Source: an uncultured Bdellovibrionales bacterium (GTDB taxonomy: Bacteria; Bdellovibrionota; Bdellovibrionia; Bdellovibrionales; SG-bin7). From it: 64,000 nucleotides of DNA. The DNA lies in assembly GCA_964498095.1 (NCBI GenBank), contig CAZCFY010000002.1, positions 74,298 through 138,297 of the forward strand, given 5' to 3'. Below the pieces are notes generated by a model, which saw only the letters and a program-made list of their open reading frames with translations, did no database searches and was not told the DNA's origin. Both the position numbers and the translations under genes were made by a program. Shown here one piece after another: positions 17,375-39,105 of this stretch (its first letter is position 1; each line of letters opens with the position of its first letter).

Positions 17375-17956
17375 TTAAAACGCGCCGTTGCTGGCTTCTG
17401 CTGCGGGTTTTATGCCTACGTTCCCGCTGACCGATAAAAGGCCGGGGATTATTCCATCCAAATCTAATGTAACTAGCGTCGTTGAGTCGGTAATTTCCAG
17501 ATAAGAAAAAGACAAAAATGTCAGCGTTATTGCGTCGGTGGTCGAAAAAATTCCATTATCATTGGTTATCTGCAGACTGCGCCCGGAACTGCACTGACTG
17601 GAAAGTTTTAGCTGAACACTTTGATACTTTCCGGCCGGTAAAGAAACAAAAGATATACTTGAGCCTGAGGGGTCATAACTAAAATCTTCCAAATCAAAAT
17701 CGTAAGTTTGCGTAACGGCATTGGGATCGGGGTTGGCTAAATCAATATAAGGAATGAATTTAATCTGTGAAAAACAGAAAGTTAAAAGGCGAATCTGACT
17801 GAGTTGCGCCGTAGATAAGTTCGAATCTGAAAAAGACAGTTTAAAAAAGGGCCCGCTGGTGGGTGTGCGGCTAGGAAGCGAACAAAACTGGTAGGCGATA
17901 ATAATCGCGCCTACCAAAGCCAGAACGAAATGGCGGTTTAAGTGCCTTCTATGCAT
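17375..17956 (-). CDS. hypothetical lipoprotein or membrane-anchored protein
   Basis: N-terminal hydrophobic segment ending AYQFC. The rest is Ser/Thr-rich and beta-rich. Start overlaps the acyl-CoA ligase stop by 8 nt. Confidence 0.45.
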   Translation of the reverse strand: MHRRHLNRHFVLALVGAIIIAYQFCSLPSRTPTSGPFFKLSFSDSNLSTAQLSQIRLLTFCFSQIKFIPYIDLANPDPNAVTQTYDFDLEDFSYDPSGSSISFVSLPAGKYQSVQLKLSSQCSSGRSLQITNDNGIFSTTDAITLTFLSFSYLEITDSTTLVTLDLDGIIPGLLSVSGNVGIKPAAEASNGAF

Positions 17957-19721
17957 AAAGACTGTCGATGACTTCCTTATATTTTTTGTCGCAGAATTTG
18001 CGCTTCACTTTTAATGAGGGCGTAAGTTCTCCAGCTTCAATCGTAAAATCGTTGGGTAAAACCTCAAAAGTCTTTATGGTTTCGTAGCTTGCCAGCTGAC
18101 TATTTACATTAGCTACGACGTCACGAATGATCCCTTGCACTTGTGGAGTTTTGGTAAGCTCCGCGAAGCTACTAAAAGACATATTGTTTGCCTGGGCAAA
18201 GCGTTTTACTTCGTCAGGATTTAAAGTTAGCAGCGCCACGACATATTTCTTTTGATCACCGTGAATCAATACATTGGAAATATATTTATTAAGTTTAAGC
18301 AGATTTTCTAATTTTTGAGGAGCGACATATTTTCCGCCGGCGGTTTTAATTAAATCTTTCTTGCGGTCGGTAAGCCTTAGAAATCCACGATCATTAAGCT
18401 CACCAATGTCGCCGGTGGCAAACCAGCCGTCGTGCATGACTTCTTTGGTGGCTTCGGGACTCTTGTAATATTCGCGCATCACTTTATCGCTTTTCACGAG
18501 AACTTCGCCGTCACTGGCAATTTTTATTTTTACGTCGGGTAGAGCGCGCCCAACGGATCCGAACTCGTAATCGTGAGGACGGTTTAGAGTTATGGCTGCC
18601 GTCGTTTCGGTGAGCCCGTAGCCCTCGAGAATTAAAATGCCGGCGGCGTGAAAGAATTCGGCGATTTGCTGGCTTAGCGGCGCGCTTCCGGAAATGCAGA
18701 AGCGCAGTCTTCCGCCAAGTCCCTTATGAAGCTTGGAGAAAACTAATTTTTTTGCAACGCCGTACTCTAGAAAAAGTGTCAGCGGAATTGTCTTGTTACT
18801 GCGTTTGTATTTTGAAACTTGCTGGCCAACACTTAACGCCCAGTTAAATATTTTCTTTTTAGTGGGATTTAAATCGGCTTGCGAGACAACGCCGTTATAT
18901 ATCTTTTCAAAAATTCGTGGAACGGCGACGAGCACTGTTGGCGATACTTCGCGTAAGTTATCCCGGATTTTATCGATACTTTCCGCATAGGCGATTCCAT
19001 ACCCGAGATAAATGCTTCCCCAATACTCCACGTGTCCAAGGATATGTGAAAACGGTAGAAAGGTGAGAGTGGAATCTTCGGCGACCATGCCCAGTTCGCT
19101 GAAGACATCGATAACTTCGCTCATAACTTGTAAGTGAGTTAAAGAAACGCCCTTGGGAACGCCGGTCGTACCGGACGTATAATGAATAGTGGCTAAATCA
19201 TTTAACTGCACTTGACTCACGGAACGCGAATAGAAACTAGTATCGCCTTTTATAATCTCGCGCCCTTCCTTTTCGAGGTCGTCAAGACTTTGCGTTCCCT
19301 TGACCCCGTCGGCGTTAAAAATAAAAACGCCTTTTACTTGGGGGCACTGGCTAGAAATTTTTGCCCACTTGTCTAACTGACTTTTGTCTTCGACAAATAA
19401 AAATTGAGTTTCAGAATTGTTGAGTATGTAGGTCATTTCTTCGGTCGTATTGCTGGGATAAATGGGTATCGATACGGCGCCTAAGCCTAAAATTGCTAAA
19501 TCAGCAGCAGACCATTCCATCCGCGTCGAACTCATGATTGCCACATGGGCGCCCTTGGTTACGCCTTTTTTATTTAAACCTGCGGCGATAAATTCAACTT
19601 TCTGAATGTATTCCTTCCAGTTGTAAGATTTCCATTCACCCGCAACTTTGAATTTAACGGCAAATTGGCTATCTGGAATTGCACGCTTTTTTAAAAAGTA
19701 GCTACAAATATTTTCGGCCAT
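17949..19721 (-). CDS. long-chain-fatty-acid--CoA ligase (AMP-forming, FadD-like)
   Basis: AMP-binding signature YTSGTTGVPKG, plus GYGLTET, TGDIGELNDRGFLRLTDRKKD and GGKYVAPQ. Start placed at ATG 19721 (MAEN, GGAGAA upstream) instead of ORF-track 19790. Confidence 0.85.
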   Translation of the reverse strand: MAENICSYFLKKRAIPDSQFAVKFKVAGEWKSYNWKEYIQKVEFIAAGLNKKGVTKGAHVAIMSSTRMEWSAADLAILGLGAVSIPIYPSNTTEEMTYILNNSETQFLFVEDKSQLDKWAKISSQCPQVKGVFIFNADGVKGTQSLDDLEKEGREIIKGDTSFYSRSVSQVQLNDLATIHYTSGTTGVPKGVSLTHLQVMSEVIDVFSELGMVAEDSTLTFLPFSHILGHVEYWGSIYLGYGIAYAESIDKIRDNLREVSPTVLVAVPRIFEKIYNGVVSQADLNPTKKKIFNWALSVGQQVSKYKRSNKTIPLTLFLEYGVAKKLVFSKLHKGLGGRLRFCISGSAPLSQQIAEFFHAAGILILEGYGLTETTAAITLNRPHDYEFGSVGRALPDVKIKIASDGEVLVKSDKVMREYYKSPEATKEVMHDGWFATGDIGELNDRGFLRLTDRKKDLIKTAGGKYVAPQKLENLLKLNKYISNVLIHGDQKKYVVALLTLNPDEVKRFAQANNMSFSSFAELTKTPQVQGIIRDVVANVNSQLASYETIKTFEVLPNDFTIEAGELTPSLKVKRKFCDKKYKEVIDSLYA

Positions 19722-19764
19722 AGGTTCTCCCATTGCTATCAATGCGTATATTTTACTTGCGAGA

Positions 19765-21768
19765 TTATTTTTTGTTAAGGAACAATTCAACCGTTTTTAC
19801 GCGATTTTCGTCGACAATGACACGTTCCTGGGCTTCCGCACCGGTCCATTTGTCCACAGCTCTAATCACGAGTTCTTTATTTGCTGGGACGGCATAGCGC
19901 TTAAATGGTGGGGTACCAGGAATTTCGTCGCGGTTGATGTAAACGGTCGCATTGTTCGGAAAAATAGTTATATTAAGGTAGCCTTCGGCTGTCTTTTGCA
20001 GAAGTGCTTGTAAAGAGTCACTTTGCTTATCTGCAGTATATTCCGTGCGGTAAATTAAATAACCGGCGAGTTTAAGTGTGATTGCATGCGTACGTTTAGC
20101 TTCTAATTCAATAATCGCCGGTGTAATTTTGCCTATATCCTTGTCGTTAACGATAATCATAGCGCCCGGTGGGTTACTAGTAACGGAGACTTTATACGGC
20201 TCTGCTTTTGAAGGCGAAGCGGTCGTTTGACATTCCAACGGGGGGTTGGGTTGTTCACAAATATTGGCAGTCGTTGGCGAGGTCTTAGTGTTCACTATAG
20301 TAAAAAACCTTGAAACTTTGTCGGGGCCAGTCCAGAGAAGTCCTCCAACGAGGACTATGAACAGCATTAATGTAGGTCCGGGTATGTAGGAGGTCAGGGC
20401 ATTAAAGGAAATACGATTTGTGTCGCGCGCTCCACCTGAGTTCGTCATCGAGGAAGCCCGTGTGGTTGTCTGCGACTGCTTCCTTTTAGCATTAATAATC
20501 TGTTGCGAAAGATTTTCGGTGATCGCGCCCTTACCGGCGGCGCCGATCTTTTCGTGCGACGTGATATTTCGCTGTTGAACTGCTGAGTCGACAAGGTCTT
20601 TAAAGCTAAAATCGGTATCTGTCGTGGTGTTTTGTCGAATGGGTGTTGTGGCCGTAGCGTTGGTCGCACTAATAGCGTTGGTGGCAGTCACTGACTGCAT
20701 CACGGTTTTGCCGTCAAATCTGTTATCAACTGGCGTTTGCGTTGAGGTTAGGGTGCGTGTTGTTTCATCGTTTCCGCTCACGGGAACGTCGGCGAGATCA
20801 ATTTTAGAGTACTCTACTAATTTGTTTCTTATAGTTACGATTTCGTCGGAAAATAACGTTTTTATAACATTGCCAAAATCGTGTTGCGAGAAAGTCGGGT
20901 AATTCTTGTTTAGAAAAGTATTTAAGTCGCGATGAAGTGCAGCTGCGGTTTGATAGCGAAGGTTGCGGTCCTTTGCCAAAGCCTTATTTACAATTTTTTC
21001 TAAGTCCTCTGGAACTTTTGGATTTATTTTTCGCAGCGATGGCACCTGACACTCTCGGATTTTCCTAAGAGTATTCATTTCGTTATTAGCCATAAACAAA
21101 CGGTCGTTAGCGACGAGTTCCCACAAGACGATTCCTAACGAAAAGACATCGGTGCGTAAATCGACTTGAATGCCCTCGGCTTGTTCGGGGCTCATGTAAC
21201 CAAATTTGCCCTTTAGCGTTCCGGCCTTGGTGGCTTCGATTTGGGTTTCGGTTTTGGCGATACCAAAGTCGACGATTTTAATTTCGCCTTCGTAGCTCAT
21301 CATGACGTTTTGCGGACTGATATCACGGTGAGTGATATTCAGCGGGCGTCCGCTCGTACCATCGAGGCAGCGGTGCGCGCTGTCAAGGCCGGCGGCGGCT
21401 TCGCGAATGATAAACAAAATTTGATCAAGACTAAACGACTTGTTGCTTTGTTTCATCCGGTTAATTATTTGCCGCAAGTTTTTTCCTTCGACGAAATCCA
21501 TGACGAGGAAAAACTGACCCTTTTCAACTCCAAACTCAAAGATCGAGACGATGTTGCTGTGTTTTAAGTTAATGGCGATTTTCGCTTCTGACTTAAACAT
21601 TTCCACGAATTCAGGATTGTCGGAGTATTGCGGGAGAATTCTTTTTATGGCTACGTACTTGTTAATGCCGCTGGCACCGGGGGCGCGTGCGAGATAAATC
21701 TCGGCCATACCGCCGGTGGCGATCTTTTCTAAAAGAATATATTTCCCAAATCTTTCAATCTGCGTCAC
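19765..21768 (-). CDS. Hanks-type Ser/Thr protein kinase with a TM helix and two C-terminal PEGA domains
   Basis: VAIKRI, catalytic loop HRDISPQNVM, DFGIAK and YMSPEQ. Ser/Thr/Asn-rich linker, then TM helix LMLFIVLVGGLLW. PEGA-like segments VSVTSNPPGAMIIVNDKDIG and LNITIFPNNATVYINRDEIPG. Confidence 0.9.
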   Translation of the reverse strand: MTQIERFGKYILLEKIATGGMAEIYLARAPGASGINKYVAIKRILPQYSDNPEFVEMFKSEAKIAINLKHSNIVSIFEFGVEKGQFFLVMDFVEGKNLRQIINRMKQSNKSFSLDQILFIIREAAAGLDSAHRCLDGTSGRPLNITHRDISPQNVMMSYEGEIKIVDFGIAKTETQIEATKAGTLKGKFGYMSPEQAEGIQVDLRTDVFSLGIVLWELVANDRLFMANNEMNTLRKIRECQVPSLRKINPKVPEDLEKIVNKALAKDRNLRYQTAAALHRDLNTFLNKNYPTFSQHDFGNVIKTLFSDEIVTIRNKLVEYSKIDLADVPVSGNDETTRTLTSTQTPVDNRFDGKTVMQSVTATNAISATNATATTPIRQNTTTDTDFSFKDLVDSAVQQRNITSHEKIGAAGKGAITENLSQQIINAKRKQSQTTTRASSMTNSGGARDTNRISFNALTSYIPGPTLMLFIVLVGGLLWTGPDKVSRFFTIVNTKTSPTTANICEQPNPPLECQTTASPSKAEPYKVSVTSNPPGAMIIVNDKDIGKITPAIIELEAKRTHAITLKLAGYLIYRTEYTADKQSDSLQALLQKTAEGYLNITIFPNNATVYINRDEIPGTPPFKRYAVPANKELVIRAVDKWTGAEAQERVIVDENRVKTVELFLNKK

Positions 21769-22492: not shown

Positions 22493-23152
22493 TTACCAGG
22501 CCCAAGAATAGCCGAGAAGCACAGCTAAAAAAGTTTGATCCGAGCCCACCGCTAAATCCATTCCTACGGCGGCACTCAGGGGATTAATCAAGAGATCTTC
22601 AAAGCCAAACCCCAAACGCAACTGAACGTTATCTTGATTGACGACGCTGGCAAGTCCTTGTTCGCTCTTCATGCGCGAAGAAACGCCCGCCCGCAAGAAT
22701 GGGCGAAATTTCTCTGTACTCGTAAACACCCAGCGCCGATTTACTTGCAAATATCCTACCCCACCGGTGTGGATATCAAATCCTAACTCCCAGTGATTGC
22801 TCGTGTTGGAAGGCAAAAGAAAAACAAATCCAAAAAGAAAGACGAGTTCCAATTTCTCGCGGAGTTTGTCGGGATCAAAAACAAAACCTATGCGTGGCGA
22901 AACTGATTTCTTGTACGGATAAAAGTAGGGCTGATCCTCGCGCTCCTTGGCGCGGTCGCGCAAACTTGATTCTTCCTGGCCCTTGGGTTGGGTAATTTCC
23001 ATTTTTTTGAGTCGTAAGTCTTCTTCGGGCGTCGATGGCGCGACGGGTTCGGACTGAGGTGTAGTCGGTACAGTGATTGTGTCGTTGGGTGCGGCACTGA
23101 CAAAAATGCCGCAAAGAAAAATTCCCAAAAAAAACATGACACAAGTTCGCAT
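22493..23152 (-). CDS. small secreted / outer-membrane protein (hypothetical)
   Basis: Signal peptide FVSAA/PN, a Pro/Glu-rich linker, then a beta-strand-like C-terminal half ending in aromatic residues (LLGYSWAW). Confidence 0.45.
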   Translation of the reverse strand: MRTCVMFFLGIFLCGIFVSAAPNDTITVPTTPQSEPVAPSTPEEDLRLKKMEITQPKGQEESSLRDRAKEREDQPYFYPYKKSVSPRIGFVFDPDKLREKLELVFLFGFVFLLPSNTSNHWELGFDIHTGGVGYLQVNRRWVFTSTEKFRPFLRAGVSSRMKSEQGLASVVNQDNVQLRLGFGFEDLLINPLSAAVGMDLAVGSDQTFLAVLLGYSWAW

Positions 23153-23222: not shown

Positions 23223-24377
23223 TTGGGATCTATTAAGGCGTTAATTTTGTTGAGCGCGGTTATTTCTTTGCCGCTGGTGGGTAATGGCCAGGCTCTCGTA
23301 AATCATGCGATTCACCAGGACTATATGAGTATTCGTGCTATGGGAATGGGGAATGCGTTTACCGCTGTTTCTGACGATTATAGCACGATGTTTTACAATC
23401 CCGCAGGTCTAGCTAAACTTCAAAGCGGTACGATTAACATGTTTATCAATGGTGGGATTTCTGACAGCTTCATGTCACTTTACAATGACACGAAAAACAT
23501 TAGCGGTAACACGGATACTGAAAAGACGAATAATGCGCTGGCATTAATTCAGTCAAAATATGATACCGATTATTTTAGCCGTTTAGGTTTGGGCGCGATT
23601 TGGGCGCGTCCACGCTGGGCTATCGCGATTTTACCGCTAGATTTTGAATTAAATATGTCGATTCATCAGGGCGTTGGCCCCCAAATCAACGTTGAAGGAA
23701 ATCAAACAACAACGATTGCCTATGCCTATGGCCGCAAGGTGAAGTGGCACGAAAAACATGAATGGTCGTGGGGCACAACAGTAAAAGCTATGTACCGGGG
23801 TTATGTCGCAAAAAATATGTCGGCGACCGAGTTGGCAACTAATGCGGAGTTTTTTAAGGGTAGTGACGCCAAAGAGGGTTTGGGCGTGGATGCGGATGTT
23901 TCTTTAATGTTCGAGCCCAAGTACGACAGCGGATTTATGAGCGTTGCAGCTCCTACTTTCGTATTTGCCGTGCGCAATATTGCTGACTTAGGGTTTAAAC
24001 AAAATTTACATTTATTTAACAAGGATTCCACCGAGCCACCTGCCGCCGGACGACGAATTGATATCGGTTCGAAGTGGCAATTGCCGACATGGAAGATTTT
24101 TACCGTCCGCGGAATGGTAGACGTGCGCGATATTGGCCACAAGTATTGGAATTACATGAAAGGCCTGCACGTGGGTTTTGAATTTGATTGGAATATAGCA
24201 AGTTGGTGGCGTGGAGGTTGGCGCGTGGGATTAAACCAAGGTTACTGGACCGCAGGCTTCACCGGTAAATTTTTAACTTTTATGCTTGATTTGGCGACTT
24301 GGGGAGAAGAGGTTGGGACCTCGGAAACTCCCACGGAAAATCGCCGTTACATGTTTAACGCGAGTATTGATTTCTAA
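23223..24377 (+). CDS. FadL/TodX-like outer-membrane beta-barrel, paralog 1 of 3
   Basis: Start moved to TTG 23223 (GGAGG 6-7 nt upstream; avoids overlap with the divergent gene). Signal peptide ...VGNGQA. N-terminal motif IRAMGMGNAFTAVSDDYSTMFYNPAGLAKL resembles the E. coli FadL hatch N-terminus ([25 protein letters not shown]). C-terminal NQGYWTAG...ENRRYMFNASIDF. Confidence 0.6.
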   Translation: MGSIKALILLSAVISLPLVGNGQALVNHAIHQDYMSIRAMGMGNAFTAVSDDYSTMFYNPAGLAKLQSGTINMFINGGISDSFMSLYNDTKNISGNTDTEKTNNALALIQSKYDTDYFSRLGLGAIWARPRWAIAILPLDFELNMSIHQGVGPQINVEGNQTTTIAYAYGRKVKWHEKHEWSWGTTVKAMYRGYVAKNMSATELATNAEFFKGSDAKEGLGVDADVSLMFEPKYDSGFMSVAAPTFVFAVRNIADLGFKQNLHLFNKDSTEPPAAGRRIDIGSKWQLPTWKIFTVRGMVDVRDIGHKYWNYMKGLHVGFEFDWNIASWWRGGWRVGLNQGYWTAGFTGKFLTFMLDLATWGEEVGTSETPTENRRYMFNASIDF

Positions 24378-24411
24378 ATCGCAGTTTAAGTTGGCGTTTG
24401 GTTATTGGCGT

Positions 24412-25077
24412 TTAGAGTTTAATCATTACATTCAAGAAAACTGTCGGTTGCATAATATTGTGAGGCGCCCCGCCACCGACAGTACTGCTGTTGACCGCGT
24501 TACCGCCTTCAACGCCATTTTGTAAGTTGCCGGTTCCCCCTGTAAAATTTGGACTGTAATTAACGGTGTGCGCATGCGCGGGCATTTGTTGAACCGTCAA
24601 AGTATGCGTTTCGGCGCCAGCCACGGCACCTAGGGGCCGAGCTGTCAAACCTTGTCCAGCACCGGCTCCCGCCAGAGCGCGGCCGAGTGTTCTTGGCAAC
24701 ATCATACTCTTGTGGGCGGCGAAGTCGGCGGCAGCACTTAGTCCGCGGCCAGAACTCACTGGGCACTGAGGATCAGCGCACGTGGACCACAGCAAAGTGA
24801 AAAGCGCTTGCGTGTCATTATTTGCCAGAGCCGCTCCGCTGAGCGCATCGCCAATTGTGTTGTCGTTCATTAATACCCACCCCGCATCCGCCACGTTCTT
24901 AACGGTGAGTTTGATGTCTCCGGTTGTCCATGCTGCCGAGCCGGATGAAGTTGTATTGCTAGAGGACTGCGCCTCGGCCGTTGTAATTTTCTGCAGTTCC
25001 TTTTCGGTACAAGCGTTGTAGCTAAACGTGATACAGCCAAATAACACCACAAGCGAAAGTACTCTTTCTTTATCCAT
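24412..25077 (-). CDS. phage tail-collar-domain (MdpB-like) lipoprotein
   Basis: GGGGG Shine-Dalgarno upstream. Signal peptide with Cys (FSYNAC). Tail-collar domain pattern GWVLMN...ALFTLL...MLPRTLGRALAGAG...GAETHTLTVQQMPAHAH...GGGAPHNIMQP. Confidence 0.75.
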   Translation of the reverse strand: MDKERVLSLVVLFGCITFSYNACTEKELQKITTAEAQSSSNTTSSGSAAWTTGDIKLTVKNVADAGWVLMNDNTIGDALSGAALANNDTQALFTLLWSTCADPQCPVSSGRGLSAAADFAAHKSMMLPRTLGRALAGAGAGQGLTARPLGAVAGAETHTLTVQQMPAHAHTVNYSPNFTGGTGNLQNGVEGGNAVNSSTVGGGAPHNIMQPTVFLNVMIKL

Positions 25078-25150
25078 TTTTTCCCCCGGTTTATACGTTT
25101 TCTTATCGGCAAAATTTGTCTCCGGATTTAGCTTTCTCAGAGTGAGAATT

Positions 25151-25187
25151 GGGTTGGTGGTGGTGGTGGTGTGAATGGGTGGTGGTT
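25151..25187. repeat. G-rich microsatellite, (TGG)5 plus a GGGTGGTGG tail
   Basis: Read directly as ggttggtggtggtggtggtgtgaatgggtggtggtt. Lies in the divergent region between the tail-collar gene and the transposase-like gene. Confidence 0.9.
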
Positions 25188-25387
25188 TTGAGTTTATTTG
25201 GGCATTGATTGGCTGCTATTATCTTCAAGATTTACAGTCGCCTTTGCAGTTTCATTCCGGCAGCTATTTTTACTTACTTACAAGTAACCCTATTTCCTAA
25301 AAGAATTCGTCGAACACTTTTTAAAAGTAGAAATTACTTTTAAATTAAACTTGATTTTCACAGTGAACATCTGTACCTTCGTTCACG

Positions 25388-26113
25388 TTGCATAAACAAA
25401 TTCCCCTATTGAAAAAAGAAAAGTCGGAGTATGGTGGTGAGCTACTGAAAACGCGTGGTGGCCGCAAAGGGCCGCGTCCGTTGTCGACGGATTACTCTAT
25501 GCATTTGGTGTTGCGTTCATCTTTGGCCAAGGGCAACTGGTCTTTTAAAAATCCACGCAATGAAAGAGAGATTAAAAAAATAATTAAGAAATTTTCGCTA
25601 AAGAATGGCGTAAAAATAATTTCCTATGCCATTGTCGGTAACCATATTCACCTTCAAATTAAATTATCCAATCGCTATACATATAATCGATTTATCCGCG
25701 CGATAGCGGCCGCAATTATGATGGCCGTGACGGGCGTTTGTCGATGGCGCCCGTCGAAGGAAAAATTTTGGGATCTTCGGCCTTTCTCCCGAATCGTAGA
25801 GAGCCTCCGTGCCGTGAGAAATTTGGAAAATTATATTTATCTCAACCGCATCGAAGCGGCCGGCTTCTCTCGCAGCGAAGCGCGCGAGATTTTGCGTCGA
25901 GAGGGGCGGGCGCGGCCGGCGGGGTTTGTGGAAAGGTGCCCAGGGCCGCCAGCTGGGATTGTGGAAATGGGCCACGAGCCGTCTGCTGGATTTGTGGAAA
26001 GGTGCCCAGGGCCGCCAGCTGGGATTGTGGAAATGGGCCACGAGCCGTCTGCTGGATTTGTGGAAAGGCGCTATGGGCCCACTTTGTTTGGCGGTCTCTT
26101 TGAAGTTCTTTGA
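25388..26113 (+). CDS. IS200/IS605-type HUH (Y1) transposase-like protein, RAYT-like, with a repeat-encoded C-terminal extension
   Basis: TTG start. HUH motif in IVGNHIHLQIKL. Tyr motif NYIYLNRIEAAG resembles the YIxxNPxxAG of REP-associated tyrosine transposases. The C-terminus is encoded by a tandem repeat. Confidence 0.7.
   Translation: MHKQIPLLKKEKSEYGGELLKTRGGRKGPRPLSTDYSMHLVLRSSLAKGNWSFKNPRNEREIKKIIKKFSLKNGVKIISYAIVGNHIHLQIKLSNRYTYNRFIRAIAAAIMMAVTGVCRWRPSKEKFWDLRPFSRIVESLRAVRNLENYIYLNRIEAAGFSRSEAREILRREGRARPAGFVERCPGPPAGIVEMGHEPSAGFVERCPGPPAGIVEMGHEPSAGFVERRYGPTLFGGLFEVL
25925..26068 (+). repeat. 66-bp tandem repeat, 2 perfect copies plus 12 nt, with an internal 33-bp sub-period
   Basis: 25925-25990 and 25991-26056 are identical base for base (tttgtggaaaggtgcccagggccgccagctgggattgtggaaatgggccacgagccgtctgctgga). 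A third copy starts at 26057 and diverges after 12 nt. It encodes GFVERCPGPPAGIVEMGHEPSA twice. Confidence 0.95.
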
Positions 26114-26580
26114 AAGTCTCTTTGATTGATCTGTCTGTTGATCTCTCTGATTGGCGCTGTGATGGTCAGGCTGTTAGTCCCTTGTGATTATGATTAATCA
26201 TCTGGGATTAATTATCGCGGACAAAGAAAGTCTTTGAAATTAAAAATTATTAAAAAAAGACCTTATTTGTCTTTTTTAAATAATTTTTGATGAGGTCGGG
26301 GGGCCCGGAGCGGGTAATCTACTTATGTACGTTATTGTTGGCGCGGCCCATTTTTTCGGGATTGCTGCTGCAGATTTTAGATTAATCTCTCAAAAAAATG
26401 ATTTATTTATTGATCGAGCGAGCTGATTCACCGCCGCTAGTGCTTTAGGTCTACCTTCGTTCACCGATTGCGGCTTCTAAGATAGATACCTATGTAGAGC
26501 ACCGGCCTCGACAAGCGACTGATAAAAATTCTAGGAGAGTTGGTATGTCTCCTGATTTTTTTAGAAATAATCTCTTTGAA

Positions 26581-26612
26581 AAAAAGCCAAAGACTGTGCT
26601 TTGGCTTTTTGG
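26581..26612 (-). terminator. Rho-independent terminator (usable on both strands)
   Basis: 10-bp stem aaagccaaag / ctttggcttt with a 6-nt loop, followed by a T-run on each strand. Lies 30 nt downstream of the stop of the minus-strand lipoprotein gene. Confidence 0.7.
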
Positions 26613-26640
26613 TTTTAGAACTATGTGAGCGAAGGTAGAA

Positions 26641-27354
26641 TTATTGAAGAAGAGTGATGAGGGCAGCGCCTATCGCCTGATAGTTTCCGGCATTATTATT
26701 TATTGCCTGACCAATTTGAGTACAGACTGCAGAATTTTGATCCGTAATTACCGCACATTGACTCGAATAAAGAGTCGTAGCAGTTGCTCCAATTGCTGTT
26801 TGCTGTTGTGCGGTAGCTCCTCCCGACGCATTGGTAACGGCAGCGTTAATGTCTGCTGGGTCTGGGGTTTGTCCATTGAGAATATCTGCGAGAATATTTC
26901 CTCCTGCGGCACCACCTGCTTCAGCGACAGTTGTTCCGATTCTCGCGGCACTTGCAAAATAAATATAGCCATTGCTACCAGAAGCTACGCAATCGTTATA
27001 GACGGCAGTTGCTACAGTGCCGCTGCTAAATGCTAACATACCCATCAAAGTCATCGCGGGATCATTAGCGCCGTTATTATCCAACATTCTCCCAACAGCA
27101 TTCGAAATCCGCTGGGAGTCGAGGCCGTCGCCGATGAAGCCGGCGGCGCAACGGATAGAGTAGGACTCGGCAGATGAGTAAGATGCGACCATGGCTTTGC
27201 AGGTGGTCGCGGCGGCGGAGCGGGAAGCGACGGTGCCACCGCTAATTCGGTCCAAACATTTTTGGGCTTTGGCAATGGCGTTGGTTTCGGCGTCTTCGCA
27301 GCCGGTTAGAAATAAAGTGGCGACTCCACATACGCTCAAGAATAAATTTTTCAT
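26641..27354 (-). CDS. Ala/Gly-rich lipoprotein L1, paralog of the 28870..29712 product
   Basis: Start at ATG 27354 (MKNLFL, GGAG upstream). Lipobox LTGC. Shares segments with L2 (SYSIRCAAGF vs ASAYAGKCGL; MTLMGMLAFSSG vs LMMVLIAFAKTG). Confidence 0.6.
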   Translation of the reverse strand: MKNLFLSVCGVATLFLTGCEDAETNAIAKAQKCLDRISGGTVASRSAAATTCKAMVASYSSAESYSIRCAAGFIGDGLDSQRISNAVGRMLDNNGANDPAMTLMGMLAFSSGTVATAVYNDCVASGSNGYIYFASAARIGTTVAEAGGAAGGNILADILNGQTPDPADINAAVTNASGGATAQQQTAIGATATTLYSSQCAVITDQNSAVCTQIGQAINNNAGNYQAIGAALITLLQ

Positions 27355-27681
27355 CCGAATCTCCTGTTGCAATTCAAAATTTCAAAATAAATATGAAGTT
27401 CTATATTAGACCGCGACTGCAAAAGTGTAAAGAGCCTTGAAACTGCGTTGCCGCCAAATGGCCGCCGCGACGTATAGCTGTGGCACCGTAGAACACCATC
27501 TCGTCAAATAAAACCACCTCAGCGCGCGCCAACTTAAGAATATAATAACATTTCTCCTCAACGATCGTCCAGGTGGCGGCGGCCACCTCAACCATAGGCG
27601 CGTCGAGGATGGTAAAAAAGAAGTCAAACGTCTCAAAATCGCTACGTATCATTCCGATAATTTGAGTGAGGAGAATTCATC

Positions 27682-28863
27682 ATGAATCGTCTAAGTTTTT
27701 CTAAATTGCAAGCAGCGAAGAGGTATTTTTTTGAGGTCGATTTCGCGAGAACGAAACTAACGAAATTCATTCTTAAAATTCCCCTAATTTTACTTCTCAT
27801 TGGCAACCAAGTTCTGGCCCGGGAACTTTACGAATTTTACAATGGCGTACGGCAAATGGGAATGGGCGGAGCGACGATTGCAGTGGTAAACGACGAGACA
27901 GCGCTCTTTGCTAATCCCGCGGCTCTGGGTAAACTACGCGACAGTTTTACGACAGTTGCCGATCCCGAAGTGGATTATGGCGAAATTAACTCGGAAATTG
28001 CACCGGGCACGGGAATTCTAGATGCTTTCTCCCTGCAAGGAGTTCTTGATAAACTTAATAGCGCGAAAGACAAACACTTTCACTTAAGGGCTCAGGCTTC
28101 GCCATCATTAGTTCTGTCGAACTTTGGAATCGGGATTTATGAAAAGTACTCGGTTGACGGTGAAGTCACGGCTTCGCCAAATGAGTTGCACTTGGATTTT
28201 CGTAACGATTTGGCGTTTGTCATTGGCTACTGTTTTCGTATTTGGGATGGGCGTATTAAATTTGGTTTTAATGCCAAGTACATTAGCCGCTTAGAAATCA
28301 GCGACCCCACGAATACAATTTCTCCAAGTGTTACGGATTTATCGGCCAAAGACTATGCCGTCGAAGGCGCGGGAATTTCCGCAGACGTCGGCTTAATTCT
28401 TTCGGCGCCTTGGGCTTTGCTTCCAACTCTAGCGGTGGTCGCGCACGATGTTGGCGATACGGCATTTAATGCTGGCACGGGTTTTATGTACGGCACATCG
28501 TCAACGCGGCCGCGGAAGGTTCCGCAAACAATAGATGCGGCGATCGCTTTATTTCCAATTTTGGGGCAAAGAACACGCACCACATTTACGGTTGAAGTCC
28601 GCGACGTTACAAATGTCCTCAAGGAGCACGATGGCACGTTGATTACGGACCCTTACAAAAAGTATCACGCGGGAATTGAATTTAACATCCGCGATATGTT
28701 TTTTATTCGTGGAGGAATGAATCAGCATTATTGGACCGCAGGTCTAGAGTTTGCGTATGACCGCTTTCAGTTTCAAATAGGTACGTACGGAGAAGATATA
28801 GGAACGGGAACCGCAAATAGAGAAGACCGTCGCTATTCGGCAAAATTTGCATATAGGTTTTAA
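27682..28863 (+). CDS. FadL/TodX-like outer-membrane beta-barrel, paralog 2 of 3
   Basis: GAGGAG Shine-Dalgarno upstream. N-terminal VRQMGMGGATIAVVNDETALFANPAALGKL. C-terminal NQHYWTAG...EDRRYSAKFAYRF. Confidence 0.6.
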   Translation: MNRLSFSKLQAAKRYFFEVDFARTKLTKFILKIPLILLLIGNQVLARELYEFYNGVRQMGMGGATIAVVNDETALFANPAALGKLRDSFTTVADPEVDYGEINSEIAPGTGILDAFSLQGVLDKLNSAKDKHFHLRAQASPSLVLSNFGIGIYEKYSVDGEVTASPNELHLDFRNDLAFVIGYCFRIWDGRIKFGFNAKYISRLEISDPTNTISPSVTDLSAKDYAVEGAGISADVGLILSAPWALLPTLAVVAHDVGDTAFNAGTGFMYGTSSTRPRKVPQTIDAAIALFPILGQRTRTTFTVEVRDVTNVLKEHDGTLITDPYKKYHAGIEFNIRDMFFIRGGMNQHYWTAGLEFAYDRFQFQIGTYGEDIGTGTANREDRRYSAKFAYRF

Positions 28864-28869
28864 CAGAGA

Positions 28870-29712
28870 ATGTTGAAAAAGTTAGTTTGGCGAACAACAA
28901 TTATATTTTCCGTCGTCGTGGTGTGTACCGCGTGCAAGAATCTTTTTATCGGATTTACGGATTATAATACCGATGAAGCGAAGTACTCTCAGGCAATAAC
29001 TTATTTAAATGCGCTCGAATACGACAAGGCTATCGCCGAGATTCAAAAGACTTCGGCGACGTTTCAGGCGCGGCGGCAAACCCGGTATATTATGGCTTCG
29101 GCCTATGCGGGAAAGTGCGGACTTAATACTGTGGGCATGATTGAGTCTTTCGACAACATTGGCAGCATGCGCTTATTTCCATTTTTGGTGGGGCAATTTA
29201 TCGCCAAGGGCGTAGACCATCAGACTGCGTGTCAGCAAGCCGAAATGCAATTGCGCTTGGTTTCCGAAGATCCCGACGTGCGCACTCCGAGCGAAAACTT
29301 AATGATGGTTCTCATCGCGTTTGCTAAGACGGGAGTGATTTTAAATAAGTCCGTAGATACTAATGATGATGGCGCTATGGACGGAGGATATCTGCCGGGT
29401 GATCATTGTGTTGATCCAACCATGGTAAGCAATTCAGACGTCAATCAACTCATAACGGCCATCACGCAAATCATTCATAGTTTGCCAAAGGTAGGAACGT
29501 CCTTTGGCAGCGCCGAGCTTGGAACATTAACAAGTGCTTGCGATGCCATGGAAGCCGTAAATCCCATTTATAATTTTTGTAATGTATTAACCGCCAGCGA
29601 TGCCACGGACGAACACCGCCAGGCATTTCGGGCCGTTTTAGGATCTAATACTGGAGTTGGATTAGGAAACTGTAACGGAGGCTTAGACGTATGCGAATGC
29701 TTTCCACCATAA
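28870..29712 (+). CDS. lipoprotein L2, Cys-rich, paralog of L1
   Basis: Lipobox VCTAC. Helical-looking N-terminal half (AITYLNALEYDKAIAEIQK). About 10 further Cys. Sits between barrel paralogs 2 and 3, and its end overlaps the start of paralog 3 by 22 nt. Confidence 0.6.
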   Translation: MLKKLVWRTTIIFSVVVVCTACKNLFIGFTDYNTDEAKYSQAITYLNALEYDKAIAEIQKTSATFQARRQTRYIMASAYAGKCGLNTVGMIESFDNIGSMRLFPFLVGQFIAKGVDHQTACQQAEMQLRLVSEDPDVRTPSENLMMVLIAFAKTGVILNKSVDTNDDGAMDGGYLPGDHCVDPTMVSNSDVNQLITAITQIIHSLPKVGTSFGSAELGTLTSACDAMEAVNPIYNFCNVLTASDATDEHRQAFRAVLGSNTGVGLGNCNGGLDVCECFPP

Positions 29713-30836
29713 TTTTTGTAATTTTGTTGGGTGCAAACTCTTGGAGTCAAAGACTGCAAGAAAATTATATTTCGGCGCGCGCCGCGGGTATGGGAAATGC
29801 CTTTAGTGCGGTCGTCGACAATATTGATTCCATTTTTTATAATCCGGCCTCATTGGTTAAGTCGTCGGGATTTCATTGGACCATTGCCGATATCAATATT
29901 GGTGTTGGTAATCCCGAGGCCTTGATGTTGCTAGGAAATTTGAGTGGAGACTTTCAAAACACAATTAACCAATTACAGGATAAGACGTTTAGTAGTAATG
30001 CCTACGCAAAGACCGCCGTGCAACTGGGAACTTTTGCATTTTATGTTTATGAAAATATGAATTTGGGGGTAGCGACATCTAATCCCGTGAGTCCGCAGTT
30101 TGATATCGACTATATCAACGACATTTCTTATGGAATGTCTTTTGCTTTTCCGCTTATTCCCAGCATCATGGCGATGGGAATTACAACTAAATTTATCCGC
30201 CGCAATGGTAACCGTTTTACGGTGTTGGCTAATGATTTGGCCTCGCAGAATCAAGATTATTTAAGGGGTCTTTGGGATCTTAACGGAACGGGTTATGGCT
30301 TTGATACGGGATTTTTATTTAAGATACCTGGTCCCGTGAGTCCCACATTGTCTTTAGCATGGAAAAATATTGGTGGATCGACTTTTAAGCCGACGACAGG
30401 TAGTCCGGGTACACCACCGTCGGAGGCCGACGAAGTAACAGCCGGCTTTGCACTAAATATTGGTTTGCCGCTGTTGTCGATATCTCCAGCAATAGAGGTA
30501 AAACATGCGGGCGACCCCACTATCCCGTTTGGTAAAAAACTGCATCTAGGTTTCGAGATTAGTTTACTTAATTTAGATATTCGTGGCGGCGTCAATCAAG
30601 GTTACTGGACAGCCGGTTTAGGTTTGGGCTTGGGCTTTTTGGATTTGGATTTGGCAACTTACGGAGTGGAAACCGGTGCAACTGTTGGGCAAAACGAGGA
30701 CCGCCGCTATATGTTGCAGCTAACAATGGGACTGGGCATGGATTTTGGCGGCGGCGATGGCGGAGGGAGTGGCGGCTTTAGTGGGGACAGGGAAAATAAA
30801 GTCCGCGCGCAACGACGCTTGAAAAAACGCCGTTAA
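29691..30836 (+). CDS. FadL/TodX-like outer-membrane beta-barrel, paralog 3 of 3, with a Gly-rich/polybasic C-terminal tail
   Basis: N-terminal ISARAAGMGNAFSAVVDNIDSIFYNPASLVK. C-terminal NQGYWTAG...EDRRYMLQLTMGLGMDF, followed by an extra GGGDGGGSGGFSGDRENKVRAQRRLKKRR. Confidence 0.6.
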   Translation: MRMLSTIIFVILLGANSWSQRLQENYISARAAGMGNAFSAVVDNIDSIFYNPASLVKSSGFHWTIADINIGVGNPEALMLLGNLSGDFQNTINQLQDKTFSSNAYAKTAVQLGTFAFYVYENMNLGVATSNPVSPQFDIDYINDISYGMSFAFPLIPSIMAMGITTKFIRRNGNRFTVLANDLASQNQDYLRGLWDLNGTGYGFDTGFLFKIPGPVSPTLSLAWKNIGGSTFKPTTGSPGTPPSEADEVTAGFALNIGLPLLSISPAIEVKHAGDPTIPFGKKLHLGFEISLLNLDIRGGVNQGYWTAGLGLGLGFLDLDLATYGVETGATVGQNEDRRYMLQLTMGLGMDFGGGDGGGSGGFSGDRENKVRAQRRLKKRR

Positions 30837-36516: not shown

Positions 36517-36704
36517 ATAAATAAGAATTACTTGTACCGATTTGAGGCGCTTAACTTGGCGAACTCCTATACGCTGTCTAAAAAGTTTTTTGCCGCAAGT
36601 TCTATACGCGGTCCATCAAGGTATTATCTTTGCACAACTTTATGCCGATAGGACTAACAGCCAGGGATAGGCAGAGTTTCAATTTGAGACCGGGAAATTG
36701 GGGA

Positions 36705-37421
36705 ATGAAGTTGGCTTTCAAAATATCTTTGGTAACGATTGTATTGCTTGGAATAACTACCTTTTATTCCAACTGCACTCCCCAACACATGGTAGGGGCG
36801 CCGCTCTCAAGTATCAACACCGCCGAAATACTTCAAAGCTTACAAAATCAATCCACAACGATTTTAAGTCAGCGATGTGCTTCTTGCCACAACGACAATT
36901 CGACCAATTCCAGCCTTAAAGATATTTTGGATACGCAGTATTTGATTACGGCCGGTTATATTGATCCCGGTTCGCCACAAACATCTCTTCTCTATATGAA
37001 CGTCGTCGATAAAATTATGCCTCAAGGCGGTCCCGAACTCTCCGTCGAAGATATTGCGGTGTTACGCGACTGGATTGCGGCGCTCGGTGGAAATTTTGAT
37101 ACATTTATTGGTGCTGTTGATGGGCCAACCACTGGCAATACAAATGTTATAGGTACGTTTTTGCAAGTAAACGCAATTTTACAACAGCGCTGTGTTGCTT
37201 GTCATAACGGGCAACGCCGGCCAAATTTAAATTTACCTTATGCCCAACTAATTGCCGAAACAACAGCTGCGGGTCTTCCCTTAATCTCTCCTGGAGAGCA
37301 ATCGAATTCTCGTCTTTATCTCTCTGTGGCCAACAATTCAATGCCACAGGGAAGTCCGCTCACAAATACGCAAAAAGAAATCATCCGCACTTGGGTTGCG
37401 GCAGGAGCTCGTAATGACTAA
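36705..37421 (+). CDS. operon gene A: lipoprotein with two planctomycete-type cytochrome-c-like (PSCyt1-like) CXXCH modules
   Basis: Start at ATG 36705 (MKLAFK). Signal ending FYSNC. Two modules of the form C-x-x-C-H ... S-x-L-Y ... M-P-Q-G ... W-I/V-A-A-G (CASCH at 36876-36890, CVACH at 37191-37205). Confidence 0.65.
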   Translation: MKLAFKISLVTIVLLGITTFYSNCTPQHMVGAPLSSINTAEILQSLQNQSTTILSQRCASCHNDNSTNSSLKDILDTQYLITAGYIDPGSPQTSLLYMNVVDKIMPQGGPELSVEDIAVLRDWIAALGGNFDTFIGAVDGPTTGNTNVIGTFLQVNAILQQRCVACHNGQRRPNLNLPYAQLIAETTAAGLPLISPGEQSNSRLYLSVANNSMPQGSPLTNTQKEIIRTWVAAGARND

Positions 37422-39105
37422 ATTGCGTCGCACCTTAGGTTTTATTGGTTTATTCCTGTTACTTAGTTTGAGTTTCCATAACTGTATTTCGGGTTCGTCT
37501 GCGGATTCGAGCGCGGGGACGGGAAGTAATGGTGGTAATGTTATTCCCGCGTGTACTTACTCAAGCAATCCTGCACCCGTTCTCCAAGGAATTTTTACCG
37601 ACAGTGCTTTGACTAATTCCGTTTCGTCGATTTCTTACCGCGTAGGCATGGGAAATGATGCCGGCAATGAGGCTACTCGCACATTGTATTTGCGTGCCAA
37701 CTCCGGCGATAATTATAGCAGTGTAATATCTGTGAACTGTAATGGTGGTACTGGAATTGCCGCTAACTGCGATATTAATAATGGTAATCTCCGTGTGCGG
37801 ATTAATCCCGATCAAGGCGCTGAGTGTTTATCGGGCTCCACCGCAATACAAATCAATGTGAGTGATTTGGTAAATGCTCCAGGTTGTCAAAACCTTGCAG
37901 CGCAGTCGAACTCCTTAACTTTGAATGTGAATCTTACCAATGGTTGTCTGCCGACAATTCGATTAAATCCTCCCAATCAATATTCCTTTGGACAAATGGG
38001 GGCAAGTGTCGCCATCGACGGCAATTGGGCTGTTGCCGCAACTCCGGGTGATGAGCTTTCTGGGGTTGATGCCGGAGCTGCACATGTTTTTCAGCGCAAT
38101 GTAAATCAATGGACTAATTTTCAAAGAATCGTTCCAAATAGCATTGCTGCCGGCGCTTCGCTGGGCGCGGTTGCAATTTCTGGGACGACAATGGTCTTGG
38201 GCGCAAACTTATATGCCAATGGCACAGGCCGGGCCTGGGTTTACCAGTTTAGCGGAACTTCATGGGTGTTGGCCGCAGAACTTAATGCTCCCACACCGAT
38301 TGTCGGCGAAAAATTTGGTACTTCTGTAGCAATTTCAAATGGGGTTATTGCCGTCGGCGCACCCAGAAACTCTGCTATGGGGTCACAGTCCGGCGCGGTC
38401 TATTTATTTTCAGGATCTAATTTTGCTTCCGTGCAGACTGTTTATCCTTATATTGATGGCAATATCGCCGGTGATACTCTTGTTCAGGGCGAGTTTGGTA
38501 CGAGCGTCTCGTTGAATGGAACTTCATTAGTTGTGGGTGCGCCATTTCCTAATTCCTCTATTACACGCAGTGAAGCCGTCTACTTATTTAGACAAAATGG
38601 AAACTTTGCCGCCGCCCAAAAGATTTCCAATAGTGATGGCGGCAGTACAAAGAGATTTGGGGCAGCGATTCTTCAAAGTGGTAACTCTTTAATTATTGGC
38701 GCGCCATTTTACTCTTCTAATATGAATAGTGAAGTCGGCCGAGCCTATGTTTATTCGCGCGCGGACACGGCCGCAAACTTTAGTTTTACCCGCCAATTAA
38801 ATCCCGGCGATCCCGGTGTAAAAGATCACTTTGGACAATCCGTTTTCTTGAGTGGAAATTATTTTTATGTCGGCGCCCCCGATAAAACTTTCGATCAACT
38901 TGCCAAGGTTGGAGCCGTTTATATTTTCAATAGTGATGGGTCACAAAATTTCAAAGTGCGCTCCCGCCGCGCCGACCGCGAAAATGACTCCTTTGGCGTT
39001 TCGATTGGTGTTTCTAATGGGTGGATGATTTCCGGCGCCTTTAATGACGAAAGCGACGTCAATTACCTGGATGCTGGCTCCGTATATATGGTGGATGTGC
39101 CGTGA
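37414..39105 (+). CDS. operon gene B: lipoprotein with a Cys-containing N-terminal region and a 7-repeat FG-GAP-like beta-propeller
   Basis: ATG 37414 overlaps the gene A stop by 8 nt. Signal ending SFHNC. Seven repeats of the pattern FG.SV...G....VGAP......G.VY.F (e.g. EKFGTSVAISNGVIAVGAP...GAVYLF). Confidence 0.65.
   Translation: MTKLRRTLGFIGLFLLLSLSFHNCISGSSADSSAGTGSNGGNVIPACTYSSNPAPVLQGIFTDSALTNSVSSISYRVGMGNDAGNEATRTLYLRANSGDNYSSVISVNCNGGTGIAANCDINNGNLRVRINPDQGAECLSGSTAIQINVSDLVNAPGCQNLAAQSNSLTLNVNLTNGCLPTIRLNPPNQYSFGQMGASVAIDGNWAVAATPGDELSGVDAGAAHVFQRNVNQWTNFQRIVPNSIAAGASLGAVAISGTTMVLGANLYANGTGRAWVYQFSGTSWVLAAELNAPTPIVGEKFGTSVAISNGVIAVGAPRNSAMGSQSGAVYLFSGSNFASVQTVYPYIDGNIAGDTLVQGEFGTSVSLNGTSLVVGAPFPNSSITRSEAVYLFRQNGNFAAAQKISNSDGGSTKRFGAAILQSGNSLIIGAPFYSSNMNSEVGRAYVYSRADTAANFSFTRQLNPGDPGVKDHFGQSVFLSGNYFYVGAPDKTFDQLAKVGAVYIFNSDGSQNFKVRSRRADRENDSFGVSIGVSNGWMISGAFNDESDVNYLDAGSVYMVDVP

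Follow-up and report, generated by a model that had tools for sequence, protein, structure and literature searches.

What do three related FadL-like outer-membrane barrels do when their genes lie among genes for dedicated lipoproteins? The question is raised by a 64,000-nucleotide stretch of contig CAZCFY010000002.1 from an uncultured Bdellovibrionales bacterium (this whole stretch is referred to below as the window), in which three barrel genes, here called A, B, and C, and two lipoprotein genes lie between positions 23223 and 30836. An earlier note on this DNA, made from the sequence alone, suggested that the barrels may be channels for hydrophobic substrates and that the region contains a duplicated barrel-plus-lipoprotein unit and has an accessory character. 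Comparison with related genomes, profile searches, and structure prediction give good support to the conclusion that these genes form part of a six-gene chromosomal cluster that is a core outer-membrane cluster of the order Bdellovibrionales, and that this cluster encodes three 14-strand FadL-superfamily barrels that diverged long ago, together with one small barrel-like protein and two Cys-rich α-helical lipoproteins. As for function, we tentatively read the barrels mainly as membrane-embedded docking platforms for partner proteins, rather than as simple fatty-acid pores, in the knowledge that this reading may well prove wrong.

Conservation of the six-gene module

The module runs in the order s219 (the small barrel-like protein), barrel A, lipoprotein 1, barrel B, lipoprotein 2, and barrel C, with coaE on one flank and addB/addA on the other. 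The three barrel open reading frames (ORFs) of 381 to 393 residues and the two lipoprotein ORFs described in the earlier note are all confirmed, being present in the ORF list and recorded as the same products among the gene calls of a 229.7-kb NCBI contig. The features of the module in the window, with the evidence for each, are as follows (HMM, hidden Markov model).

22493-23152, minus strand: s219, 219 residues (ORF list; family HMM)
23223-24377, plus strand: barrel A, 384 residues, PorV/FadL-like paralog (ORF, BLASTP, hhalign, synteny)
23334-23420, plus strand: N-terminal hatch-type motif of barrel A, RAMGMGNAFTAVSDDYSTMFYNPAGLAKL (translation)
26641-27354, minus strand: lipoprotein 1, 237 residues (ORF, lipobox, family HMM)
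27682-28863, plus strand: barrel B, 393 residues, PorV/FadL-like paralog (ORF, AlphaFold2, Foldseek)
27850-27936, plus strand: N-terminal hatch-type motif of barrel B, RQMGMGGATIAVVNDETALFANPAALGKL (translation, alignment)
28870-29712, plus strand: lipoprotein 2, 280 residues (ORF, AlphaFold2, profile search)
29691-30836, plus strand: barrel C, 381 residues, PorV/FadL-like paralog (ORF, BLASTP, hhalign, synteny)
29778-29861, plus strand: N-terminal hatch-type motif of barrel C, RAAGMGNAFSAVVDNIDSIFYNPASLVK (translation)
30747-30833, plus strand: C-terminal extension of barrel C, with RLKKRR-COOH at nucleotides 30816-30833 (ortholog C-termini)

Relatives were collected by a scan of one genome per species, which found 247, and the best 80 loci all belong to Bdellovibrionales, Pseudobdellovibrionaceae, or Bdellovibrio. 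We examined 84 related loci of 21 kb (L001-L084), four Bdellovibrio bacteriovorus strains included, by BLASTP of all ORFs. The recurrent order is acyl-CoA ligase (minus strand), Ser/Thr kinase with a PEGA domain (minus), coaE (plus), s219 (minus), A (plus), lipoprotein 1 (minus), B (plus), lipoprotein 2 (plus), C (plus), addB (plus), and addA (plus); the order of the module itself is kept in about 80 Bdellovibrionales genomes, among them B. bacteriovorus HD100. Co-location in relatives, which the earlier note had named as a check, is therefore borne out, with gene order kept across the 84 related loci. The "accessory, rearranged character" that the same note ascribed to the region is wrong for the module, which shows conserved core synteny and into which only a phage-tail-like gene and a transposase-like gene have been inserted; the reading as an accessory island is likewise rejected by this order-wide synteny and by a GC (guanine plus cytosine) content that stays flat across the window at 0.44 to 0.49.

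Variation at the locus tends to involve pairs of genes. In about a dozen genomes lipoprotein 1 and B have been flipped together, with the outer order kept, and in one (L001) s219 and A have. Barrel A and lipoprotein 1 are jointly absent at the locus in L037 and L069, where s219 abuts B; lipoprotein 2 and barrel C are jointly absent at the locus in L062; and lipoprotein 1 alone is absent at the locus in L021 and L034. The gap between lipoprotein 2 and C has a median of -1 nt over 77 loci and is 30 nt or less in 95% of them, compared with a median of 17 nt between B and lipoprotein 2; in the window, the end of the lipoprotein 2 gene and the start of barrel C overlap by 22 nt. A mirror-tree analysis of 22 taxa, in which four housekeeping neighbors were controlled for, gave a partial rate correlation of +0.73 for lipoprotein 2 with C versus +0.42 for lipoprotein 2 with B, and C was the best-correlated partner of every other module member; both observations are soft evidence and carry no significance test.

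Some further observations on the locus can be set beside these. Inversions of lipoprotein 1/B, s219/A, or lipoprotein 1 alone are seen at L019, L033, L035, L039, L046-L050, and L075; L001; and L026, L029, L043, and L044. One 2,746-bp contig (L070, PWMF01000039.1), labelled as a "Natrialbaceae archaeon" metagenome-assembled genome (MAG), has genes for B, lipoprotein 2, and C whose products are 33 to 43% identical to those of the window; it is almost certainly a mis-binned bdellovibrional contig. Barrel A starts with TTG at 23223, with GGAGG 5 nt upstream, and barrel B with ATG at 27682, with GAGGAG 8 nt upstream. The latter start is uncertain: the Shine-Dalgarno sequence at this ATG is strong, yet most homologs are called 20 to 35 residues shorter, and about 28 residues (MNRLSFSKLQAAKRYFFEVDFARTKLTK) precede the hydrophobic core of the signal peptide (window 27682-27820). 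Scans of the locus for promoters and terminators were uninformative, terminator-like sites being no commoner than in shuffled sequence.

Family placement of the three barrels

Barrels A, B, and C are true paralogs, related far beyond chance in alignments of their sequences. Nearly full-length BLASTP matches give 25% identity for A/B (E 4e-20), 27% for A/C (E 4e-22), and 27% for B/C (E 1e-31), the last being the closest pair, and the family profiles, built from 59 to 79 orthologs each, match one another in hhalign with E-values of 1e-42 to 1e-52. The N-terminal motif and the C-terminal block that the earlier note had picked out in all three translate as it described. Among 123 family members, the R, M, G, N, P, A, and L columns of the N-terminal hatch motif are invariant or nearly so, and in barrel B numbering N78 and P79 do not vary, and A80 hardly varies, in alignments of both 33 and 123 sequences. 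The strongly conserved C-terminal block that they share reads NQ(G/H)YWTAG...(W/Y)G(E/V)(E/D)xG(T/A)...(E/N)(D/N)RRY; as the earlier note also remarked, NQGYWTAG...EDRRY is not known as a feature of FadL. Barrel B is the best-conserved member of the module, at 43 to 52% identity in most related loci and up to 84% in the closest, and a word-index search with it returned 743 homologs, all unnamed or "hypothetical," whose named sources are Bdellovibrionales MAGs.

The fold of barrel B was predicted with AlphaFold2 from a 33-sequence alignment (predicted local distance difference test, pLDDT, 85.9; predicted template modelling score, pTM, 0.79). The model has 14 strands by DSSP after a non-β N-terminal segment, and the GMGG...NPA motif falls in residues 56 to 84 of this segment, which has short helices ahead of strand 1. 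In a Foldseek search of the Protein Data Bank (PDB) the top match of this model is 8gl6_F (E 5.9e-8, template modelling (TM) scores 0.47/0.50), and 6h3i_F is also matched (E 3.5e-6, TM 0.47/0.52). Both are chain F of SprA translocon complexes, with 345 to 367 residues; from the chain length, we take chain F to be PorV. FadL and its mutants, CymD, TodX, and TbuX come next (E 1.6e-7 to 4.5e-5, probability 1.0, TM 0.40-0.56), with CymD giving the best TM of all matches (0.54/0.56), and BamG stands further down the list (9hiv_F, E 1.7e-4; 9n2d_B, E 2.3e-4).

Sequence profiles point in a similar direction. The NCBIfam model PorV_fam (NF033709) is matched by barrel B with 44.2 bits, by A with 30.5 (E 2.7e-7), and by C with 26.7, and in all by 122 of the 123 family members at E<=0.01, including all 33 members of the B family; the best E-value is 5.2e-15, and even this match is still under the curated cutoff of 90 bits. 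Among further NCBIfam models, PorV2 is matched by 112 of the 123 members, PorQ by 65, FilD by 31, BamG by 11, PorV proper by 10, and PorP/SprF by 9, and scores against PorV-type models remain far under the family cutoffs (44 versus 90 bits; 34 versus 325 bits). Pfam Toluene_X (PF03349), the family of FadL, TodX, TbuX, and CymD, reaches only 11.6 bits on barrel C against a cutoff of 29.7 (E 0.093; residues 31-79 to profile positions 20-73); it has no match in A or B, and 2 of the 33 B-family members match it, at E >= 0.03. The treponemal family UPF0164 (PF03687) is matched by barrel A above its gathering score (25.4 versus 21.4 bits), but the match covers 46 residues of the N-terminal motif alone (residues 39-84 to profile positions 52-97 of a 325-position model), and B and C have no match to it. 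Barrel B has no match in Pfam. Profile searches of PDB sequences returned nothing significant, the B family giving only 4poi (E 0.053) and the 123-sequence superfamily profile giving CymD as its best match (E 0.071), through the hatch motif at the CymD N terminus.

The barrels are members of the FadL superfamily, and it is well supported that they form a separate branch of it that lies nearest to PorV/PorQ. We place PorV/PorQ, and not the FadL transporters, as nearest relatives because the top Foldseek match is chain F of the SprA complexes, because PorV_fam matches 122 of 123 members, and because Toluene_X is reached only at E 0.09. The "FadL-like" label of the earlier note therefore stands at the level of the superfamily, to which the 14 strands of the barrel B model, the non-β N-terminal GMG...NPA segment, and the Foldseek matches all point, and does not stand for kinship with the transporters themselves; the profile scan that it proposed is correspondingly mixed, nearly universal below-threshold PorV_fam matches favoring a PorV-like identity and the below-cutoff Toluene_X scores speaking against a FadL one. 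That the barrels are shorter than FadL, as had been noted, holds up, the difference being about 60 to 70 residues, and their length fits that of PorV (345-367 residues). Given the PorV/PorQ kinship, channels for hydrophobic substrates are possible but not favored.

The lipoproteins, the barrel C tail, and other genes of the locus

Both lipoprotein ORFs carry lipoboxes (LTGC and CTAC), and each adjoins a barrel gene. Lipoprotein 1 has a signal peptide and the lipobox LTGC, followed by an acidic CEDAETN; it is Ala/Gly-rich and has six further conserved Cys. Its family HMM finds it in 74 of the 84 related loci, always between A and B, and it has no family match in Pfam or NCBIfam. Lipoprotein 2 has a signal peptide and the lipobox CTAC with Cys22 as the lipid Cys, eight other conserved Cys, and a C-terminal CxGxxxxCxCP. 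Two residues past the lipid Cys lies an invariant Asn (N24), and residues 21 to 25 of the model have pLDDT <50; invariance within an unstructured segment suggests a partner-binding tether.

The AlphaFold2 model of lipoprotein 2 (pLDDT 88.7, pTM 0.83) has 13 helices and a TPR-like N-terminal half. In Foldseek, no solved structure in the PDB matches it below E 0.3; the only matches are local, to three-repeat TPR domains of about 120 residues (probability up to 0.98, target-normalized TM 0.5-0.6), several of which are peptide-binding TPRs. The model thus predicts, with confidence, an all-helical and partly TPR-like fold that has no close solved relative. Word-index searches with lipoprotein 2 gave just 17 and then 15 homologs, and an exhaustive profile search reached 874 representatives at E<=1e-3, all single-domain proteins of about 265 to 300 residues.

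Whether the two lipoproteins are paralogs, as the earlier note held, depends on the depth of the comparison. BLASTP finds nothing between them (E 18), and the HMMER family models give no cross-matches at E<1. In hhalign, P is 3e-4 with signal peptides included and 0.078 for the mature parts in shallow alignments, where the score is reached by 2 of 150 column shuffles and by 25 of 150 block shuffles. With a 193-sequence lipoprotein 2 profile, the same register is recovered over 109 columns at P 0.0062, aligning residues 4 to 136 of lipoprotein 1 with 13 to 149 of lipoprotein 2 (mature numbering) and two conserved Cys with each other, and none of 120 block shuffles reaches the observed score of 24.6 (shuffle mean 15.6, standard deviation 2.3). 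On these profile alignments the N-terminal halves may plausibly be distant homologs, and the paralogy is the weakest element of the earlier observation. The duplicated barrel-plus-lipoprotein unit is weakly supported: the homology of the lipoproteins is borderline, and the closest barrels are B and C, not the two that each co-vary in presence with a lipoprotein.

Barrel C continues past its last strand (...GLGMDF in the window) into a Gly/Ser-rich linker of variable sequence and about 10 to 45 residues. Of 77 orthologs, 74 have K[QKV]RR as the last residues of this tail (consensus RLKQRR-COOH; RLKKRR in the window), an ending shared by just 1 of about 3,570 other ORFs of the related loci. Because the predicted barrel has 14 strands, the tail should lie in the periplasm.

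In the sixth gene product, s219, a signal peptide is followed by a Pro/Glu-rich linker and then by a β-rich C-terminal part of about 130 residues ending ...GYSWAW, features that make it probably a small outer-membrane barrel; its gene is divergent from that of barrel A. Searches with its family HMM recover it in 56 related loci, B. bacteriovorus included, with position and orientation unchanged and with ORFs of 187 to 193 residues in Bdellovibrio proper. It has no family match in Pfam or NCBIfam, and we rejected it as a fourth barrel paralog, with hhalign probabilities below 1% against A, B, and C.

Two genes between A and lipoprotein 1 are insertions.

24412-25077, minus strand: phage-tail-like putative lipoprotein, 221 residues (PHROG 8763)
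25388-26113, plus strand: ORF like a REP-associated tyrosine transposase (RAYT; REP, repetitive extragenic palindromic), Y1 transposase type (Pfam Y1_Tnp)
25903-26067: 33-nt GC-rich tandem repeats at the 3' end of the RAYT-like ORF (repeat scan)

Both had been recognized in the earlier note, and both identifications are supported. The tail-like protein matches the PHROG 8763 tail protein at E 2.9e-28 and Pfam Gp10_C at just 0.022; with no homolog in any related locus by BLASTP of the ORFs, it is a lineage-specific insertion outside the conserved module. The RAYT-like ORF scores 30.9 bits with Y1_Tnp (cutoff 23) and 24.2 bits with NCBIfam REP_Tyr_transpos, under the cutoff of 80, and is present only in the window, in L005 (on the other strand), and in L050. 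Four to five tandem copies of the 33-nt unit encode a repeated peptide, AGFVERCPGPPAGIVEMGHEPS, and these repeats beside a transposase may be REP-type elements. Further out, the genes conserved upstream of the module lie at 17949-21768 on the minus strand (a FadD-like acyl-CoA ligase and the Ser/Thr kinase with a PEGA domain), and 3' of addA (window 36630-39105, plus strand) are a conserved cytochrome c-like protein and an FG-GAP repeat protein.

Orthologs in B. bacteriovorus HD100 were assigned by gene order at the locus, which gives Bd3145 for A, Bd3144 for lipoprotein 1, Bd3143 for B, and Bd3141 for C; lipoprotein 2 is probably the ortholog of Bd3142, and Bd3146 would be s219. For this strain, a time-course proteome published in 2025 (PMC12546842) lists the following proteins with their unique peptides in its supplement; Bd3146 and Bd3142 were not found in the part of the tables searched.

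Bd3148: Pkn kinase, neighbor, 38 unique peptides
Bd3147: dephospho-CoA kinase, coaE, 19 unique peptides
Bd3145: uncharacterized protein, barrel A, 13 unique peptides
Bd3144: uncharacterized protein, lipoprotein 1, 2 unique peptides
Bd3143: uncharacterized protein, barrel B, 10 unique peptides
Bd3141: uncharacterized protein, barrel C, 6 unique peptides
Bd3140: PD-(D/E)XK exonuclease, addB, 52 unique peptides
Bd3139: UvrD helicase, addA, 49 unique peptides

Normalized abundance is about 6.3 to 6.7 for A and about 3.5 to 4.6 for B and C, compared with 10.6 on the same scale for PopA (Bd0427), and the levels of the module proteins fall slightly during intraperiplasmic growth (PMC12546842). In the literature searched, Bd3141-Bd3146 have no main-text mention.

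Docking platforms, channels, or sorting factors as possible roles

The proposal that these barrels dock partner proteins and form complexes with them is made by analogy with three systems. In Bacteroidota, PorV, PorQ, and BamG are barrels that hold partner proteins in this manner. BamG is a non-transporting FadL-family barrel whose surface groove holds the lipidated tail of BamH and which contacts BamD through its final three residues (PMC12611786); PorV, a homologue of FadL, has been described as binding substrates and shuttling them (PMC12578637); and the Glt proteins of Myxococcus bring the barrels GltA/B/H, the lipoprotein GltK, and the TPR protein GltC into one outer-membrane complex (PMC9946355, PMC11761067), in which GltC grips parts of these barrels that extend, unstructured, into the periplasm (PMC11761067). 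BamG-BamH of the Bacteroidota β-barrel assembly machinery (BAM) complex (PMC12611786, PMC12578637) is the closest working analogy, different in that the similarity is weak, that the module barrels have neither the N-terminal extension of BamG nor a link to bamA/bamD, and that the module lipoproteins are unrelated in fold to BamH. The likeness to the Glt platform is one of analogy only; the module does not lie beside glt or agl genes, and Glt was not retained as a homolog.

Along these lines, lipoprotein 2 and barrel C would form a complex and would be the tightest pair, because their genes overlap or abut in nearly all genomes, because they are jointly lost in one genome, and because their evolutionary rates co-vary. 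The lipidated tether of lipoprotein 2, invariant but unstructured, probably lies on a barrel surface. Barrel A and lipoprotein 1 would make up a second unit, because they are lost together, with lipoprotein 1 pairing either with A or with both A and B. The flexible tail of barrel C with its LKQRR end could be a periplasmic tether, or a ligand for a periplasmic partner, which might be peptidoglycan, an inner-membrane component, or lipoprotein 2 with its TPR-like half. Surface display, envelope tethering, and uptake are possible cellular roles of the module as a whole.

Several points weigh against docking. Every protein-protein contact in this scheme is inferred from gene arrangement, and the mirror-tree correlations could come from rate shifts shared across the envelope. 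The hatch motif with its invariant N-P-A is one on which functional FadL channels depend, and transport would be compatible with it; a long-chain acyl-CoA ligase and coaE as conserved neighbors would suit fatty-acid uptake. The lipoproteins may face either the periplasm or the surface, and the plug position and lateral opening of the barrels are putative. An extended form of the docking proposal, which we consider unlikely though worth stating, is that Bd3141-Bd3146 and their orthologs are one unrecognized hetero-oligomeric outer-membrane machine specific to Bdellovibrio-like predators, in which each PorV-like barrel would hold a partner (the small barrel or a Cys-rich lipoprotein) and the LKQRR tail would either be gripped by lipoprotein 2 in its TPR-like groove or connect the complex with the cell wall or the inner membrane.

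The main rival to docking platforms is uptake of the FadL type, in which the barrels would be channels for hydrophobic molecules, for example prey-derived fatty acids or lipids, passing by way of the hatch and a lateral opening, with the lipoproteins serving as accessory factors for binding or hand-over. We regard this as possible but rather doubtful. The fold is shared, with Foldseek matches to FadL, TodX, TbuX, and CymD at E 1e-7 to 5e-5, as is a non-β N-terminal segment with G-x-G...N-P-A, and the invariant GMG...NPA motif aligns to the CymD N terminus (E 0.07) and to Toluene_X (E 0.09); yet HMM similarity to PorV/PorQ is much stronger than to FadL, and the length of the barrels suits PorV and not FadL. 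Nearly every genome keeps all three orthogroups, coupled to lipoprotein genes, and with a conserved C-terminal tail, and we know of no FadL channel that needs a fixed paralog triplet, coupled lipoprotein genes, or such a tail. The abundance of the HD100 proteins (~3.5-6.7) is low beside that of the major porin-like PopA, and the FadD-like long-chain acyl-CoA ligase, which together with coaE is the genomic argument for uptake, lies on the opposite strand and is separated from the module by the kinase gene and coaE.

The remaining explanations are less likely than uptake and take the PorV and BamG resemblances at face value. That the barrels serve, much as PorV/PorQ do, in an unrecognized sorting pathway, collecting secreted cargo and handing it over or anchoring it at the surface, with the lipoproteins as attached or attaching partners, seems to us improbable. 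PorV/PorQ of the Bacteroidota type IX secretion system (T9SS; NF033709, NF033710, NF033711, NF052325) are the best structural and HMM relatives of all three barrel groups, with a 14-strand FadL-superfamily barrel of about 350 residues and the best Foldseek E-value, while PorV2, PorQ, PorV proper, and PorP/SprF models also match weakly; the barrel genes also occur in pairs with other genes of the envelope, an arrangement that a docking or shuttle role would fit. Against this, scores fall far short of the curated cutoffs, and the order lies outside the phyla known for T9SS, a system that a published review describes as confined to the Fibrobacteres-Chlorobi-Bacteroidetes (FCB) superphylum (PMC12398890). 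No T9SS core gene (SprA/Sov, PorKLMN) was found in the window or the 21-kb loci, the stretches that were searched, and no cargo signal was identified; the partners here are Cys-rich helical lipoproteins of no known family, and barrel C bears an invariant LKQRR-terminated tail, in both of which the module differs from PorV/PorQ. More improbable still, to the point that we give it little credence, is that one barrel is a BamG-like accessory subunit of the BAM with the lipoproteins as BamH-like partners. BamG does bind a lipoprotein and contact BamD by its C-terminal tail (PMC12611786), and it appears both in Foldseek and as a weak NCBIfam match to 11 of the 123 members, but it ranks well below PorV and FadL in structure, and the best match to its model (NF053685, cutoff 250 bits) has E 4.3e-4. 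Only about 10 to 13 mature residues precede R-x-x-G-M-G in the module barrels, which lack the conserved N-terminal extension of about 10 to 12 residues that threads the lateral opening in BamG (PMC12578637); no bamA or bamD lies in the neighborhood; and BamG/BamH are reported to be conserved within the FCB superphylum (PMC12611786).

Annotation of PorV/FadL-like barrels outside Bacteroidota routinely calls them fatty-acid transporters or hypothetical proteins, and here a whole predatory order keeps three such barrels and dedicated lipoproteins as single-copy core genes. If these barrels are docking platforms, the principle of FadL-like docking barrels embodied by BamG and PorV would reach beyond the FCB superphylum, and work on the envelope and predation biology of Bdellovibrio would have a defined target that can be deleted. 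Concrete experimental handles are the invariant LKQRR tail and lipoprotein 2, whose fold is unmatched. A hetero-oligomeric machine of the kind outlined above, if it exists, could serve, during prey attachment, entry, or exit, to display factors at the surface or to join the outer membrane with the envelope.

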